Origin: Candidatus Omnitrophota bacterium
GTDB taxonomy: Bacteria > Omnitrophota > Gorgyraeia > JAZDFF01
Direction of reading: 5' to 3'
Length of the DNA: 64,000 bases
NCBI GenBank assembly: GCA_043808095.1
Contig: JAZDFF010000040.1
Coordinates: forward strand, 1,908 to 65,907
The position numbers were made by a program, and so were the translations under genes. Shown here piece by piece: positions 1 to 38,645 of this stretch. Under the pieces are notes generated by a model. It did not search any database. It worked only from the letters and a program-made list of their open reading frames with translations, and had not been told where the DNA came from. Within the stretch, counting starts at the first letter, position 1. Every line of letters starts with the position of its first letter.

Positions 1-149
1 GTGAGAATACCAACTTCTTTCTAAATCTCATCTTTTCCATTTATTTTCAATTATATTTTAAAACAAAACCCTACGCAAGTATTTTACTTACATAGGGTTA
101 TGTTTTAGTGGCTCCCCCGCGAGGACTCGAACCTCGGACATGGTGGTTA

Positions 150-510
150 CAAGTGACCCGAAATTGCTTTCGGACTTGGACTATCTCTTTACCATGACTA
201 ACGAAGCGGCTCCCTCGCTTTCGCTCGGGATAAAACTGTACTTCGTCCAGTTTTAGGTAGTGGGTGCATAGTCTCTGCACCTGCCTTCGCTAAAGCATCG
301 GCAGGCAAGCCTTCTGCCTGCTAGCCTCATGCGAGGATCGGCTCAGGATTACCCCAGCTGTTTCGTTTTGCTGCGCAAAAGCGAAACAAAACGACAGGGG
401 CTTCCCTGAATTCTCCCACAGTTTCAACTACGGTTTCCCGTAGAAGCTGCGCTTTGTAAGATCCTTCGGGTTTCGCCCTCAGGATGCTCGTCCGCCTTCG
501 GCGGACTCGC
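150..510 (-). ncRNA. Group I self-splicing intron (361 nt) in the anticodon loop of tRNA-Asn, between nt 35 and 36.
   Basis: The 5' exon ends in U and the intron ends in G (omega-G) immediately before the 3' exon. The conserved P7 core strands are present: GCAGAGACTA (R element) and AAGAGATAGTCC (S element). GNRA-type capped helices are also present. No ORF lies inside the intron. Confidence 0.75.
345..396 (-). repeat. A roughly 48-nt imperfect palindromic module (CCCCnGCTGnTTCGTTTTGCTnCGCAAAAGCGAAnCAAAACG..GGGG) inserted in a peripheral loop of the group I intron.
   Basis: A second copy lies at 43982..44033 in the same orientation and carries compensatory substitutions that preserve the hairpin. 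Confidence 0.6.
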
Positions 511-592
511 ACAGCCACCCGCTCTACCAACTGAGCTACAGGGGAATATTAAAAAATCAAATATCAAAAATCAAAAATAAAAATTATAAATA

Positions 593-1192
593 TTAAAAAT
601 CGCGCCTTGACTCTAACGCCTTGGACAAAGTCGGAGAGTCAATGTATTCTAAATTTGCACCCAAAGGAATGCCTACGCCGATACGGGTAAGTTTTACGCC
701 ATACGGCTTGATTACCTTACTTAAATAAAGCGCGGTGGTCTCTCCTTCTGTATCCGCATCAGTAGCAATAATTACCTCTTTGACGTTATTCTGTTTTAGC
801 CGGCTTAAAAGCCCTTCTATGGCCAAATCCCCCGGCCCTCTTCCTTCAAGCGGAGCGATGCTGCCCAATAATACATGGTACAACCCCTTAAAAGACGAAC
901 TGTTCTCAATGGAAATAACATTCTTGGGCTCCTCAACTACGCACAGAAGCGACCTGTCACGGCCCTGGTCCTGACAGATCTTACAGGTATCCTGTTCGCT
1001 TAAATTATTACAGACCTTGCAGAGCCTGGTTTTTGCTTTTGCCTCTGTTATCGAAGAGGCAAGTCCCTCGGCCTGATCTTTGGGGCTGTTTAAAAGATAA
1101 AAGACTATCCTTTCGGCGCCCCTCTTGCCGATACCGGGCAGTTTTACTAATTTTGCGATCAGCCTCTCTATGGAATCAGGATAGTTGGACAT
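593..1192 (-). CDS. recR: Recombination protein RecR.
   Basis: It has the RecR N-terminal HhH region, a C4 zinc finger (CKVCNNLSEQDTCKICQD) and a Toprim domain. It follows dnaX as in the conserved dnaX-recR arrangement. Confidence 0.93.
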   Translation of the reverse strand: MSNYPDSIERLIAKLVKLPGIGKRGAERIVFYLLNSPKDQAEGLASSITEAKAKTRLCKVCNNLSEQDTCKICQDQGRDRSLLCVVEEPKNVISIENSSSFKGLYHVLLGSIAPLEGRGPGDLAIEGLLSRLKQNNVKEVIIATDADTEGETTALYLSKVIKPYGVKLTRIGVGIPLGANLEYIDSPTLSKALESRRDF

Positions 1193-2849: not shown

Positions 2850-3051
2850 GATTTCATTCCCGATGGTTTAAGCAAAACAACGCAGAAATACAAAATTTTA
2901 GTATTCGAACGGCGCCGCGCTCGCTGCGGCTCCTGTCATGTAAGACTCTGGCTCGGGCGGAGCCTCGCCAGAGTCCGTTGTTTCTTTTCTAGTTGTTGTG
3001 AAAAATTATCTTCCTTGCGGGTTGATGATTTTTCGCTTAAGGTAGAAACAA

Positions 3052-3141
3052 CGGAGGAGTTGGGATTTGAACCCAAGGGCCCAGTTTACCCAGGCCAACT
3101 CTTTAGCAGAGAGTTGCTTTCAACCACTCAGCCACTCCTCC
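3052..3141 (-). tRNA. tRNA-Ser(GCU), type II with a long variable arm.
   Basis: Reverse complement: GGAGGAG TG GCTGAGTGGTTGAAAGC AACTCT CTGCTAA AGAGTT + variable arm + GGGTTCAAATCCC AACTCCTCC G. Confidence 0.85.
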
Positions 3142-3154
3142 AAAGAAATTATTT

Positions 3155-4159
3155 CTAGTTATAAAAGCTCTGATAAGCCAAAAGTAAACGTTCGTTGTTA
3201 GAACCTATTTCTTTGAAATAACGTTTTATCTCTAATAAATCATAAATATAAACCCTATTTCCATTTTTTATTTTTGGCGTAAAACCTAAGTTTCTGAATA
3301 TCAGTACTACTGATTTGAATAAAGGTTTAGAACAATTCGTAAAACAAATTCTCAAATATCTATATTGCTTTTCGTTAATCTTGTATGTATGAAAATAAGT
3401 ACCGCCATCTGTATCCATAAGGCCTTTTAAACATGCCCGTTGAAATTCCTTATTTTTTTTAATCCAATTCGGAATATCAATCTTATTTCTGATTTTATCT
3501 CCTATTTTAAACCCCTGGCTATTTAAGAATTTCACTAATTCTACGCTTGAAACAATTATATCAGCTCCATTATTTCCTCTATTAATATGGCGTGTTGAAT
3601 CAAGTAAAAATAATTCTTTTATCAGTTTTGCACAATAATCAGAATAATTTTTATCTTTTATATTATTATATGATATTGCAATCTGGTATTTACTCTTAAC
3701 CCCTCCATCTCCCATAAATATGCCGATAAACTCAGCTAATTTAATAGAAGGAGACGGATAAGAAATTATTTTTTTTACCGTAACCCCAAATCTTTTAAAA
3801 TATTCCGGATTTGTTTTTATTAATTCTTGAGTAGTTAAGCCGCCCTTTTTTCTTCCTTCATAAGTACCCGGATTTCCATATAACTTAAGCCTGGCTTTAG
3901 CGCCTAATCTTCCGGCATTAGAAGAATTCCAAGATTCTGGTAGAAAATTAGCAGTTTTGGGTATTAAAATTCCCGTCAGTTTCTCTAACTTTAAGGCAGA
4001 TTCATAACTCATATTAAATTTTTCTCTTTCCCAATCACATAATGTCCTTGGGTGAATATTACAAATCTTGGTTATCCCGACCCGATGTTTAACTAATTTT
4101 GATTTATTCCTTATTATAAATTCTCTCTGTTTGCCCTTTGGAAATGATAATCTAGCCAT
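3155..4159 (-). CDS. Free-standing double-motif LAGLIDADG homing-endonuclease-like protein with an N-terminal HTH-like region.
   Basis: Two LAGLIDADG motifs are present: LAEFIGIFMGDGGV and ACLKGLMDTDGGTY. The stop codon lies 13 nt upstream of the 5' end of tRNA-Ser(GCU) on the same strand. Confidence 0.75.
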   Translation of the reverse strand: MARLSFPKGKQREFIIRNKSKLVKHRVGITKICNIHPRTLCDWEREKFNMSYESALKLEKLTGILIPKTANFLPESWNSSNAGRLGAKARLKLYGNPGTYEGRKKGGLTTQELIKTNPEYFKRFGVTVKKIISYPSPSIKLAEFIGIFMGDGGVKSKYQIAISYNNIKDKNYSDYCAKLIKELFLLDSTRHINRGNNGADIIVSSVELVKFLNSQGFKIGDKIRNKIDIPNWIKKNKEFQRACLKGLMDTDGGTYFHTYKINEKQYRYLRICFTNCSKPLFKSVVLIFRNLGFTPKIKNGNRVYIYDLLEIKRYFKEIGSNNERLLLAYQSFYN

Positions 4160-7496: not shown

Positions 7497-7685
7497 GTGG
7501 CGGCGCCGCGCTCGCTGCGGCATCCGCCAAAATTTTCCTTGTCGGAAAAAGCATTAAGGGTGCGGCGCCGAAACACATTGTTTCGGCATCCGCCAAAATT
7601 TAAATTGGCGAAAAACATTAAGGTGGCGGGGCCGAAATACATTATTTCGGCATCCGCCAAAATTTAAATTAATTTAAATTTTGGC
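7497..7685. repeat. Three tandem copies of a roughly 64-nt unit, each carrying two hairpins (GCCGAAACA..TGTTTCGGC and GCCAAAATTTAAATTGGC), located immediately 3' of tRNA-Ser(GGA).
   Basis: The periodicity is directly visible. The last unit merges into the tRNA 3' end (..CTCTCCGCCAAAATT). Confidence 0.7.
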
Positions 7686-7769
7686 GGAGAGGGAGGGATT
7701 CGAACCCTCGGACCCTTGCGGATCACATGTTCTCCAGACATGCCGGTTAAACCACTCCCGAACCTCTCC
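7682..7769 (-). tRNA. tRNA-Ser(GGA), type II, with CCA encoded.
   Basis: Reverse complement: GGAGAGG TT CGGGAGTGGTTTAACCG G CATGT CTGGAGA ACATG + variable arm + GAGGGTTCGAATCCCTC CCTCTCC G CCA. Confidence 0.85.
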
Positions 7770-7842
7770 AAAAAATTGCTTTTTATTTTTTGGATTTCGA
7801 GTCCGCCAATGCTTTAATGGCGGACGAGAAATCTTAATTACC
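7770..7842 (-). promoter_or_regulatory. tRNA-proximal 5' element, copy directly upstream of tRNA-Ser(GGA).
   Basis: It is near-identical to 8201..8277 and 5985..6058. Confidence 0.5.
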
Positions 7843-8100
7843 TTTGATCAACGCTAATTTCTTCTTACGGCTAAATCTCTTTACCTCTAATTCTCTTTTC
7901 CTGGCTAAATTATAATTTTCACACAATTCTTTATGTAGCAAAATCAAGGGCTTGCGAAAACGCGTGTAACGACATTTATTCGAAGTATTATGTTCATGAA
8001 TACGTTGTTCTACATTTATGGAAATACCTACATATAAGGTGTTATCTCGACATTCTGCTATATAAACGTACCAGGGTTTAGAATAATTAACCTTAGCCAC
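7834..8100 (-). CDS. Small GIY-YIG nuclease-domain protein of the YhbQ/UPF0213 type.
   Basis: It has the motif block WYVYIAECRDNTLYVGISINVEQRIHEHN. It sits between two copies of an approximately 85-bp direct repeat. Confidence 0.75.
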   Translation of the reverse strand: MAKVNYSKPWYVYIAECRDNTLYVGISINVEQRIHEHNTSNKCRYTRFRKPLILLHKELCENYNLARKRELEVKRFSRKKKLALIKGN

Positions 8101-10485: not shown

Positions 10486-11949
10486 CTAGCCCTTTATTAC
10501 ACCTAAAGGCCTCATCCTGCAGACGCGTTTTGAAATGCCGGCATTATGCACTACATCTACCACATCATTTACATCTTTATAGGCCTGGGGCGCTTCTTCA
10601 ACAATAGTCCCCCGCCCGGTTGCCTTAACTGTAATGCCTTTTGATTCTAATTCCTTTAATAACGCACTCAAATCAATGGTTTTAAGCGCACCACTTCGGG
10701 ATTTAAGCCGGCCTGCGCCATGGCAGGTCGACCCGAAGGTCTCTTCCATTGCCTTTTGCGTACCCACTAAAAGATAGGAATTCCTGCCCATATCTCCGGG
10801 GATAATCACCGGCTGGCCGGTCTTTTTGTATCGGGCAGGTAATGCTGGATTTCCCGGGCCAAAGGCGCGCGTAGCGCCTTTTCTATGGATACATAGATTT
10901 TTCTCTTTACCGTCAACCGTATGCCTCTCCATCTTTGCGATATTATGGGCCACGTCATAAATTAAAAACATGCCCATATCCTGCCAGGAACGGTTAAAAA
11001 ACTTCTCAAATACCTCGCGGGTCAAATGCATCAGGCATTGCCGATTTGCCCAGGCGTAATTTGCCGCGCATCTCATGGCCCCAAAATAAGCCTTACCTTC
11101 GGACGAATTAACCGGAGCACAGGCAAGCTGCTTGTCCGGGACATTGATATTATATTTCGCCAGGCAATGAATCATGGTCTTGAGAGAGTCATCGCAGACC
11201 TGATAACCTAAGCCCCGTGAACCGGAATGTATCATAATCGTAATCTGGCCTTCGGTTAAGCCAAATTCATCGCAAAGATCGCGCTCATACAGCCGGTCAA
11301 TTACCTGGACCTCTATGAAATGATTTCCCGAGCCGAGTGTCCCGGATTGGGCCTTGCCTCTAACATAAGCCCTATCTGAAACTGCCGAAGGATCTGCTCC
11401 GGCAATTGCACCAAATTCTTCGGTACACTCTAAATCATCGCTAGTTCCGTAGCCTTTTTCAACCGCCCACTTTGCACCTTTTACTAAAATTTCTTTTTCT
11501 TCTCTGGTAGTGACCTTTATATCGCCTTTTGAACCTATACCTGTAGGTATGTCATTAAATAGGGCATAGACCAAATTCTTGATTTTATCTTTTATCTCAT
11601 CAAATTGAAAATTAGTTTTAAGGAGTCTTATCCCGCAATTTATGTCATAGCCCACGCCTCCGGGCGAAATTACTCCGCCTTCCTCAGGGTCAGTTGCCGC
11701 TACCCCTCCGATACAAAATCCATATCCCCAATGGATATCCGGCATAGCCAGGGAATAATTTACAATCCCCGGTAAAAATGCGACATTTGCCACCTGTTCC
11801 AGGGCTCTATCCTGGCGGATATCCTTTAGCAGTTTCTCATCGGCATAGATAATTCCCGGAACCCGCATTCCGGGTTTATAACTCTTGGGTATACGCCAAC
11901 GATAATCGTCAATCTTCTCTAATGGTACTTGCCCGATCTCAGACATCAA
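10486..11949 (-). CDS. rtcB: RNA-splicing ligase RtcB (3'-phosphate/5'-OH ligase).
   Basis: Conserved RtcB blocks are present: NCGIRLL, HSGSRGLG and CHGAGR. Confidence 0.92.
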   Translation of the reverse strand: MMSEIGQVPLEKIDDYRWRIPKSYKPGMRVPGIIYADEKLLKDIRQDRALEQVANVAFLPGIVNYSLAMPDIHWGYGFCIGGVAATDPEEGGVISPGGVGYDINCGIRLLKTNFQFDEIKDKIKNLVYALFNDIPTGIGSKGDIKVTTREEKEILVKGAKWAVEKGYGTSDDLECTEEFGAIAGADPSAVSDRAYVRGKAQSGTLGSGNHFIEVQVIDRLYERDLCDEFGLTEGQITIMIHSGSRGLGYQVCDDSLKTMIHCLAKYNINVPDKQLACAPVNSSEGKAYFGAMRCAANYAWANRQCLMHLTREVFEKFFNRSWQDMGMFLIYDVAHNIAKMERHTVDGKEKNLCIHRKGATRAFGPGNPALPARYKKTGQPVIIPGDMGRNSYLLVGTQKAMEETFGSTCHGAGRLKSRSGALKTIDLSALLKELESKGITVKATGRGTIVEEAPQAYKDVNDVVDVVHNAGISKRVCRMRPLGVIKG

Positions 11950-12364
11950 AAATCACCTCAGCCTGCCAACCTGATTTAAGTTCCCTTAATTGCAACTGGT
12001 GATAAGTAGCGGCCTTAATCTCAGTGTTTACTCTGTAATTATTCATATCTTCGCCAACGGCAGTTGCCTGCAGATTGTTTTTATCTAATTTTTCAATCTT
12101 AAAATCCGAGAAAATTAATTCTTTGGCGGCGGATAAAGAAAGTAATTCATTTAGCCAGTTTATGAAAAGCTCCTCTAAATTATCCGCCTTTTGTTTAACC
12201 GTGATATTTCTGGTATCTGGCATCTGGCATCTCGTATCTGGCTTTTTTTCAGCCATAATCTCAAACATTGCCGTGGCGGAATTTTTAAATAATTCTTTTA
12301 AATCTTTGGCCTTTACCCTGATACAGATATCGGCGGTGTGTTCGATTTGTTCGTAGTTTTTCAT
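11939..12364 (-). CDS. Archease, the RtcB activator.
   Basis: It has the N-terminal EHTADI motif. It overlaps the rtcB start as in archaeal and eukaryotic archease-RtcB pairs. It contains a short internal PDTR tandem duplication. Confidence 0.85.
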   Translation of the reverse strand: MKNYEQIEHTADICIRVKAKDLKELFKNSATAMFEIMAEKKPDTRCQMPDTRNITVKQKADNLEELFINWLNELLSLSAAKELIFSDFKIEKLDKNNLQATAVGEDMNNYRVNTEIKAATYHQLQLRELKSGWQAEVIFDV

Positions 12365-12503: not shown

Positions 12504-12576
12504 TGAGCCGCGAAGGAATCGAACCTTCAACCCCCAGATTAAGAGTCTGATGCTCTACCGATTGAGCTAGCGGCCC
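12504..12576 (-). tRNA. tRNA-Lys(CUU).
   Basis: Reverse complement: GGGCCGC TA GCTC AATCGGTA GAGC A TCAGA CTCTTAA TCTGG GGGTT GAAGG TTCGATT CCTTC GCGGCTC A. Confidence 0.88.
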
Positions 12577-38029: not shown

Positions 38030-38141
38030 AACTTACGGAGCGTTAACGAACGTAAGTTGTCTGGTCGAATTAATCCCGAGTCCGCCATTGATTCAGTGGC
38101 GGACGAGGGAGAACCAGAACATTTATTTATGGTAAATTTAG

Positions 38142-38213
38142 TTGCCCGGTCTGGACTCGAACCAGAAAAGCGAGACCCAAATTCTCGTGTGTTACCAATT
38201 ACACTACCGGGCA
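38142..38213 (-). tRNA. tRNA-Gln(UUG).
   Basis: Reverse complement: TGCCCGG TA GTGT AATTGGTA ACAC A CGAGA ATTTGGG TCTCG CTTT TCTGG TTCGAGT CCAGA CCGGGCA A. The U1:A72 pair is typical of bacterial tRNA-Gln. Confidence 0.82.
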
Positions 38214-38225
38214 ATAATTTATATA

Positions 38226-38645
38226 TTAATAGCCCGGCTCTCCTAGGTCTTGCGAAGAAGAGACGCTAACTTTAGACTTATCTTTTTCATAGGCCTCCAG
38301 AACCTTTTTCTGCAAGACTTCTCTGAAGGTCTGAGTAATGGGATGGCAGATATCTTTATGCTCTGACTGCGCTGTCTGATTATCGCTTGAAACTGGCCTT
38401 GGGATTACAGGAAGCTGAGCTGCGCACTGGTTACAGAATTTGCTATGCAGTTCATTGCGGAACCCGCATTTAGGGCAAGGCGTCTTTAATCTCCTTGACG
38501 GCATAGCAATAAAAAGACCGCTGTTTCCCTGAATTACCTTGATGTTTCTTACCACAAAGGCGTTATCGAAAGTCACAGTTGCATAAGCTTTTAGTTTTTT
38601 ATCCGGACTTTCCTTCAAAAAAATCCTAACCTCAGTTATCTCCAT
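38226..38645 (-). CDS. spoVG: SpoVG-family protein with a C-terminal zinc-ribbon extension.
   Basis: It has the SpoVG N-terminal block MEITEVRI..KAYATVTFDNAFVVRNIKVIQGNSGLFIAMPS, followed by a CPKCG..CNQC ribbon. Confidence 0.85.
   Translation of the reverse strand: MEITEVRIFLKESPDKKLKAYATVTFDNAFVVRNIKVIQGNSGLFIAMPSRRLKTPCPKCGFRNELHSKFCNQCAAQLPVIPRPVSSDNQTAQSEHKDICHPITQTFREVLQKKVLEAYEKDKSKVSVSSSQDLGEPGY

Follow-up and report, generated by a model that had tools for sequence, protein, structure and literature searches.

Bioinformatic analysis of a 64,000-nt stretch of an Omnitrophota contig, hereafter the window, identifies a 361-nt insert between U35 and U36 of a tRNA-Asn(GUU) gene as a well-formed group I intron without an ORF. 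Judged from its sequence and predicted fold, we have high confidence that this is a functional ribozyme, and it is very probably self-splicing. The intron is an additional member of a reported and widespread site-specific class, and it combines a typical core with an enlarged periphery.

The interrupted gene, with its encoded CCA, occupies positions 109..545, and all parts of the precursor lie on the minus strand. The 5′ exon (545..511; UCCCCUGUAGCUCAGUUGGUAGAGCGGGUGGCUGU) comprises tRNA nucleotides 1–35 and ends in C32 U33 G34 U35, base 511 being U−1; the intron spans 150..510 and ends in the ωG at base 150; and the 3′ exon (149..109; UAACCACCAUGUCCGAGGUUCGAGUCCUCGCGGGGGAGCCA) supplies tRNA nucleotides 36–76, starting with U36 A37 A38. 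Run in intron mode on the unspliced sequence, ARAGORN reports tRNA-Asn(gtt) i(36,361), a 361-nt intron after position 35. Joining the two exons (545..511 and 149..109) gives a perfect 76-nt cloverleaf with the anticodon loop CUGUUAA, a U1–A72 pair, G73, and the encoded CCA, and at the predicted exon junction GGCUGU is followed directly by UAACCACC. The cloverleaf, the GUU anticodon, U1–A72, and G73 are those of a bacterial tRNA-Asn, and the acceptor pattern UCC...GGA-G is also found in the bacterial members of the tRNA-Asn intron family. The original prediction had proposed a group I intron in tRNA-Asn(GUU) at 109–545, inserted as 361 nt between anticodon positions 35 and 36, with U at the 5′ splice site, a terminal ωG, and exons that restore a tRNA with a CUGUUAA loop, U1:A72, and G73; every one of these features was found where it had been placed. 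Neither default ARAGORN nor the Rfam tRNA model detects the gene, and no further tRNA-Asn gene was found within the window. Since standard tRNA finders miss it, the organism would be annotated as having no tRNA-Asn unless intron-aware methods were used. A gap of 47 nt separates the gene from recR (593..1192) upstream, and a strong intrinsic-terminator-like hairpin with a U-tract (67..99, minus strand) begins 10 nt past the 3′ end of the tRNA.

Two covariance models recognize the insert. Rfam Intron_gpI (RF00028) matches 468..157 on the minus strand over model positions 1–253 with 61.8 bits, above the gathering score of 50 bits (E = 3e-13 over the whole window); this is the sole Intron_gpI match in the window, and the core is not placed elsewhere. 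A family model, R1, was built from 19 short family members that were aligned and for which a consensus structure was written. It matches 518..142 over model positions 1–220 with 140 bits (E = 5e-47), its ends lying exactly eight exon bases beyond each predicted splice site (exon −8 and +8), and no second R1 copy was found within the window. For comparison, the loci L041, L002, and L010 score 101–121 bits with R1 (L041, 101 bits). RNAalifold, applied to the family alignment, independently recovers the anticodon stem, P1, P2, P4, P5, P7, P9.0, and P9, and the fold of the intron, at −149 kcal/mol, has a z-score of −5.5 relative to shuffled controls. Pairs were counted in 73 homologues aligned end to end, leaving out 27 rows of ORF-containing introns in which the covariance-model alignment had misplaced the 5′ part. 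Standard pairs fill 93.6% of cells, against 69.9% in shuffles and 33–42% when the 3′ partner is slid, counts that are biased towards the model structure because the alignment was fitted to it. Across the same 73 homologues, both bases have changed in 38 of 52 pairs, and every pair of P2, P9, and the anticodon stem covaries.

All of the helices P1–P9, P9.0, and the P3/P7 pseudoknot form in the window copy. P2 (428..443; CUACGG-GAAA-CCGUAG) is closed by a GAAA loop and covaries at 6/6 pairs in the family, and P3 pairs GUGGG (415..419, read 419..415) with CCCAC (260..264, read 264..260). P4 (409–404/348–343) encloses P5 (400–398/354–352) and a long P5 extension arm, together spanning 343..409, and P6 (342–340/281–279) with its extended P6a/b arm spans 279..342. 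J6/7 and the P7 5′ strand (269..278; GCAGAGACUA) contain a bulged A274 and are invariant in 70–71 of the 73 homologues; in P7 itself, bases 275 and 273–269 pair with 183–178. P8 (259–255/194–190) and its extended arm span 190..259, and a third tandem-GA hairpin lies within the arm at 229..212. They are followed by J8/7 and the P7 3′ strand (178..189; AAAGAGAUAGUCC). The two P7 core strands that had been proposed are indeed present, as GCAGAGACUA at 278..269 and AGAUAGUCC at 186..178. The last segment (151..177) consists of P9.0 (177–176/152–151, AA/UU), which covaries in the family, and the P9 hairpin (174..157, GCAA loop), after which comes ωG150. The distance from the P7 3′ strand to ωG is 34–37 nt in 106 of 109 introns among the matches listed.

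P1 is formed by the exon sequence CUGU and intron G1 (514..510), which pair with CGCAG (451..447), the core of the internal guide sequence GCGCAGCU (445..452), with U511 opposite G450 as a wobble. A clear P1, on which the original prediction had let its case depend, can therefore be drawn, and it is paired in 73/73 homologues: four pairs are invariant, and the fifth, between intron nucleotide 1 and the base 5′ of the guide G, covaries (AU in 21, CG in 19, GC in 18). Moreover, GCAGC is present in 107/107 family members among the matches listed. The exon contributes just 4 bp to P1, CUGU/GCAG. An extension of P1 to exon positions −5 and −6 was considered and rejected: in the 73 sequences the base after GCAG (C446 in the window) is always C, while exon −5 is G in 51 and C or A in 22, and covariation is absent. 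Also rejected was the P1 of the Rfam alignment, which sets GGAUCUU before and AC after the splice site, starts at 468, contains many noncanonical pairs, and ignores the true exon; that alignment is wrong because the model cannot span the 58-nt L1. A P10 conserved across relatives was sought and not found, the bases 5′ of the guide G showing no preference for pairing with U36, and the best option in the window is a nonadjacent pairing of 3 bp, UUA (459..457) with UAA (149..147), that is not conserved in relatives. The anticodon stem, GUGG/CCAC, flanks both splice sites; in the 73 homologues it is 100% paired, with covariation at 4/4 counted pairs. In the tRNA introns of Azoarcus and Anabaena, P1 is likewise very short, and the anticodon stem both stabilizes it and aligns the exons (PMC3895272, citing Zaug et al. 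1993 for this role). By analogy, it is probably the anticodon stem that aligns the exons in place of P10 in the window intron. The 58-nt L1 insertion could in principle slow P1 docking.

A splicing pathway of the usual group I kind can be proposed on this structure. Exon nucleotides C32–U35 would pair with the guide GCAG (450..447) in the short P1, where the U35·G450 wobble would mark the 5′ splice site, and exogenous guanosine bound in P7 would attack there. Next, ωG (base 150), positioned by P9.0 and P9, would take the same pocket, and the freed 3′-OH of U35 would attack the 3′ splice site to yield mature tRNA-Asn with the anticodon loop CUGUUAA. The exons would be kept together by GUGG/CCAC, the stem substituting for a P10 helix.

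The enlargement of the periphery affects four elements: L1 measures 58 nt (family median 9), the P5 arm 43 nt (16), the P6 arm 58 nt (25), and the P8 arm 60 nt (44). In the minimum free energy fold, L1 consists of two hairpins, GCGAGUCCGCC-GAA-GGCGGACGAGC (hairpin 1, 486..510, minus strand) and AUCCU-GA-GGG-CGAAA-CCC-GA-AGGAU (hairpin 2, 461..485, minus strand), each with a symmetric tandem G·A, which in hairpin 1 forms an internal loop. A two-hairpin L1 with many compensatory changes is present in nine related introns, including L001, L029, and L032 from Omnitrophota MAGs and L121, L123, L124, L127, and L129 from metagenome contigs found via a clade-specific pattern. Hairpin 1 is kept with compensatory changes in all eight of these named loci, and the base of hairpin 2, AUCCY-GA...GA-RGGAU, is kept in relatives with Y–R covariation. 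Small symmetric tandem G·A hairpins are a recurrent peripheral module of the window clade, found in L1, P6, and P8 (510–461 and 229–212 in the window; the L1 and P6 arms of L129, L124, and L123), and the inner part of hairpin 2 in L129 is nearly the same in sequence as hairpin 1 in the window, which suggests that the modules are reused or shuffled. Among individual relatives, L001 has exons identical to those of the window, 86% identity over intron positions 6–170, and a nearly identical P5 arm, and the P6 arm of the window is ∼80% identical to that of L101. The locus L127 is syntenic with the window, with the same dnaX–recR–tRNA-Asn order at 73–77% nucleotide identity; it carries a 269-nt intron at the same site, with exons identical to those of the window and different peripheral arms. 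This arrangement implies that the intron is older than the split of the two organisms and that the peripheral arms have diverged since. The nearest relatives (L001, L032, and L127) point to Omnitrophota or a related PVC lineage as the probable host.

The original prediction had also described tRNA-Asn as an uncommon host and insertion at 35/36 as unusual, a view that does not hold. In Williams 2020 (bioRxiv 10.1101/2020.01.27.920355), the tally of interrupted bacterial tRNAs grew from the four classical ones to 21 tRNA/site classes, one of which, represented by the seed Pam37.Asn.4Ug, has its intron in tRNA-Asn, behind the fourth nucleotide of the anticodon loop, with U−1 and ωG, and Lui et al. 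(PMC8172020) described group I introns in tRNAs of circularized genomes, mostly from candidate-phyla-radiation bacteria. The window shows the whole set of Asn.4Ug characters, namely a tRNA-Asn(GUU) host, insertion after the fourth loop nucleotide (the 35/36 site), U−1, and ωG. One genome per GTDB species was then scanned for an exact pattern consisting of the P7 3′ strand, a gap of 15–45 nt, G directly followed by UAA, and a tRNA T-arm. The scan returned at least 120 loci, and 107 of 120 among the matches listed have a tRNA-Asn 5′ half ending in CUGU and an intron ending in G before UAA; two loci among the matches listed have tRNA-Lys as host (5′ half ending in CUUU). The matches listed include many Patescibacteria lineages, as well as Omnitrophota and Cyanobacteriota (Microcoleus, Tychonema, Phormidium, Hormoscilla), together with Acidobacteriota, Nitrospirota, Planctomycetota, Elusimicrobiota, Methylomirabilota, Margulisiibacteriota, and others. 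With Asn.4Ug already published and at least 107 further tRNA-Asn loci interrupted at the same site across many phyla, host and site are neither new nor rare. In two cases, L039 (4683–4907, plus strand) and L100 (854–1025, plus strand), the family model has a second match besides the tRNA-Asn intron; ARAGORN reads the host of the L039 match as tRNA-Leu(CAA) with a 207-nt intron. In some genomes, two or more intron-bearing tRNAs thus lie near each other.

Within the Asn.4Ug class, the window intron and the cyanobacterial Pam37 seed, which shares 95% identity with L062 (Phormidium) and 93% with L041, have host and site in common and differ in architecture. The seed has an extra P2.1-like hairpin and a P7.1/7.2-type insertion, both of which the window copy lacks, and its guide is UGUA rather than GCAG. 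Conversely, the window copy has a two-hairpin insertion in L1 and elongated P5, P6, and P8 arms. Comparison with the classical IC3 tRNA introns, those of Azoarcus tRNA-Ile(CAU), Anabaena and chloroplast tRNA-Leu(UAA), tRNA-fMet, and tRNA-Arg(CCU), reveals several likenesses: location in the anticodon loop; a compact P1–P9 and P9.0 core without P2.1, P5abc, or P7.1; GNRA loops on P2 (GAAA) and P9 (GCAA); the J8/7–P7 motif AGAUAGUCC; and support of a very short P1 by the anticodon stem. The helix inventory agrees with that of the Azoarcus seed, the likeness to IC3 being one judged by inspection only. In contrast, the host tRNA and the insertion point differ (35/36 in the window, 34/35 in Leu, 36/37 or 37/38 in Ile and Arg), and the P1 loop is much larger in the window than in the classical introns.

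The window copy had been described as lacking an ORF, and this proved correct: neither an intron ORF nor an endonuclease remnant was found in it, the longest same-strand ORFs being 67 and 60 aa with no Pfam match. It is an ORF-less derivative of its family. Among the matches listed, intron lengths are bimodal (∼180–345 nt and 510–590 nt), and about 20 of the long introns carry within L1 a conserved protein of ∼100–135 aa with the motif CxxC..HH..CxxCH (carriers include L073, L038, L004, L026, and L119). The 3′ end of this ORF runs through the guide sequence, P2, and P3, and the ORF is truncated or frameshifted in several copies (L021, L017, L067, and L109). Pfam HNH aligns with the L1 ORFs over its full-length profile at 17.5–19.1 bits, below the cutoff of 21.4, and an NCBIfam scan of the ORF family gave no matches. 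A profile of the ORF family matches McrA and, at E = 4e-5, the En (endonuclease) domain of 6me0_C, a group II intron maturase, and it is this En-domain match, along with the CxxC..HH..CxxCH motif, that leads us to assign the protein to the HNH type. We infer that the target of the L1 enzyme is the near-invariant anticodon region of an intron-less tRNA-Asn gene, a target that would explain spread across phyla by homing. There is precedent in the Synechocystis tRNA-fMet intron, which encodes I-Ssp6803I (Bonocora and Shub 2001, as cited in PMC3984707) and whose ORF product, as related in PMC3984707, targets the intron-less gene at its conserved anticodon region. Unlike I-Ssp6803I, the ORF product of the window's relatives is HNH-like and not of the PD-(D/E)XK type, and the window copy has no ORF. 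A separate case is the tRNA-Asn intron of Nitrospira sp. CG24E (L089), which at 1858 nt is by far the longest of the family among the matches listed. The ORFs of its large L1 insertion show no match to the HNH-like family, so the intron may hold a nested element.

Three other readings of the locus were weighed. The host could be tRNA-Thr(UGU) with an intron after position 33, and many family loci are in fact read by ARAGORN as “tRNA-Thr (tgt) i(33,..),” a consequence of ..UUG or ..GUG at the intron end directly preceding UAA. We regard this reading as extremely improbable and rejected it, since ARAGORN calls Asn for the window locus itself. In addition, the Thr reading would leave a last intron base other than G and would put G instead of U before the 5′ splice site, it is at odds with the 107 loci, among the matches listed, that have CUGU at the end of the 5′ exon and UAA, preceded by G, at the start of the 3′ exon, and U1–A72 and G73 of the window agree with bacterial tRNA-Asn. 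A second possibility is that the intron is a decayed, splicing-dead relic in a pseudogene, the cell being served by an intact tRNA-Asn elsewhere. The window covers 64 kb of the genome, so a second tRNA-Asn copy is possible, and the intron has lost the endonuclease ORF of other members and shows unusually large peripheral insertions. However, all core pairs, both P7 strands, U−1, and ωG are intact, and the R1 score is high; L001 and L127 have the same exon sequences, the arrangement is shared by the syntenic relative, the terminator directly after the gene suggests that this unit is expressed, and the window yielded no other tRNA-Asn gene. Decay is thus unlikely, and a functional intron within tRNA-Asn remains strongly preferred.

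Such an intron might nevertheless need a protein cofactor for efficient splicing in vivo, either a maturase-like homing endonuclease with its gene elsewhere or a tandem-GA-binding protein. Tandem GA is a common protein-binding or tertiary-contact motif, and here the same motif occurs in three hairpins, P1 is very short, no P10 is supported, and a free-standing LAGLIDADG_3 gene lies 2.6 kb away. Nothing, however, links that gene to the window intron, and in L032 Watson–Crick pairs replace the tandem-GA loops, which suggests a purely structural role for them. Moreover, classical tRNA group I introns with an equally short P1 are established to self-splice without protein (PMC3895272). Dependence on a cofactor therefore appears, by a small margin of judgment, still less probable than decay, and protein-free self-splicing is the reading we retain.

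The window contains other tRNA genes with homing-endonuclease-like or RNA-processing neighbors. Of the free-standing LAGLIDADG genes that had been reported beside tRNAs, in the plural, the search confirmed a single one, a LAGLIDADG_3 gene of 334 aa (3155..4159, minus strand; PF14528, E = 5e-10, two LAGLIDADG-like motifs) that abuts an intact tRNA-Ser(GCU) (3051–3142). A small GIY-YIG gene of 88 aa (7834..8100, minus strand) abuts an intact tRNA-Ser(GGA) (7682–7769). A gene for RtcB RNA ligase (PF01139, E = 7e-174) directly followed by one for archease (PF01951, E = 2.5e-37) occupies 10486–12364 on the minus strand and adjoins tRNA-Lys(CUU) (12504–12576). RtcB and archease are an RNA repair and ligation pair, and group I splicing is independent of them. 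A SpoVG homologue (38226–38645, minus strand) with a zinc-ribbon-like insert (approximately residues 57–78) inside the SpoVG domain adjoins tRNA-Gln (38141–38213).

The same 35/36 intron is also seen on three DPANN contigs, L011 (1883–2215, Pacearchaeota), L021 (893–1390, Pacearchaeota), and L119 (64–647, complement, Woesearchaeota). Their exons form an archaeal-type tRNA-Asn with G1–C72 and no encoded CCA, and the neighboring genes include those for aIF2-beta, aIF-1A, MCM with an archaeal winged helix, and TBP, a KH PNO1-like gene adjoining the tRNA in both L021 and L119. The intron cores of the three are 75–85% identical to one another and 74–76% identical to that of an Omnitrophota intron. 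Nawrocki et al. 2018 (PMC6125680) found archaeal group I introns in no genes other than those for rRNA, and a single Pacearchaeota tRNA case was dismissed as misbinning by Williams 2020 (bioRxiv 10.1101/2020.01.27.920355). The present observations suggest that L011, L021, and L119 are real group I introns in archaeal tRNA genes. We put forward, as a tentative proposal that may well prove too broad, that the window intron belongs to one HNH-mobilized, tRNA-Asn-specific family spread over many bacterial phyla and DPANN archaea, that this family includes the first group I introns in archaeal tRNAs, and that the tandem-GA L1 pair is a new clade-specific peripheral domain at the site occupied in relatives by the endonuclease gene.

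One more tRNA group I intron at a reported site adds little biologically, and just two points go beyond the routine, the unusual module in L1 and the cross-domain reach of the family. The family is of more interest than the window copy: its anticodon-loop target is conserved across domains, it frequently carries an HNH-like endonuclease, and it extends to archaeal contigs. The tRNA-Asn intron family would be a good system for the study of intron homing across phyla and across domains.
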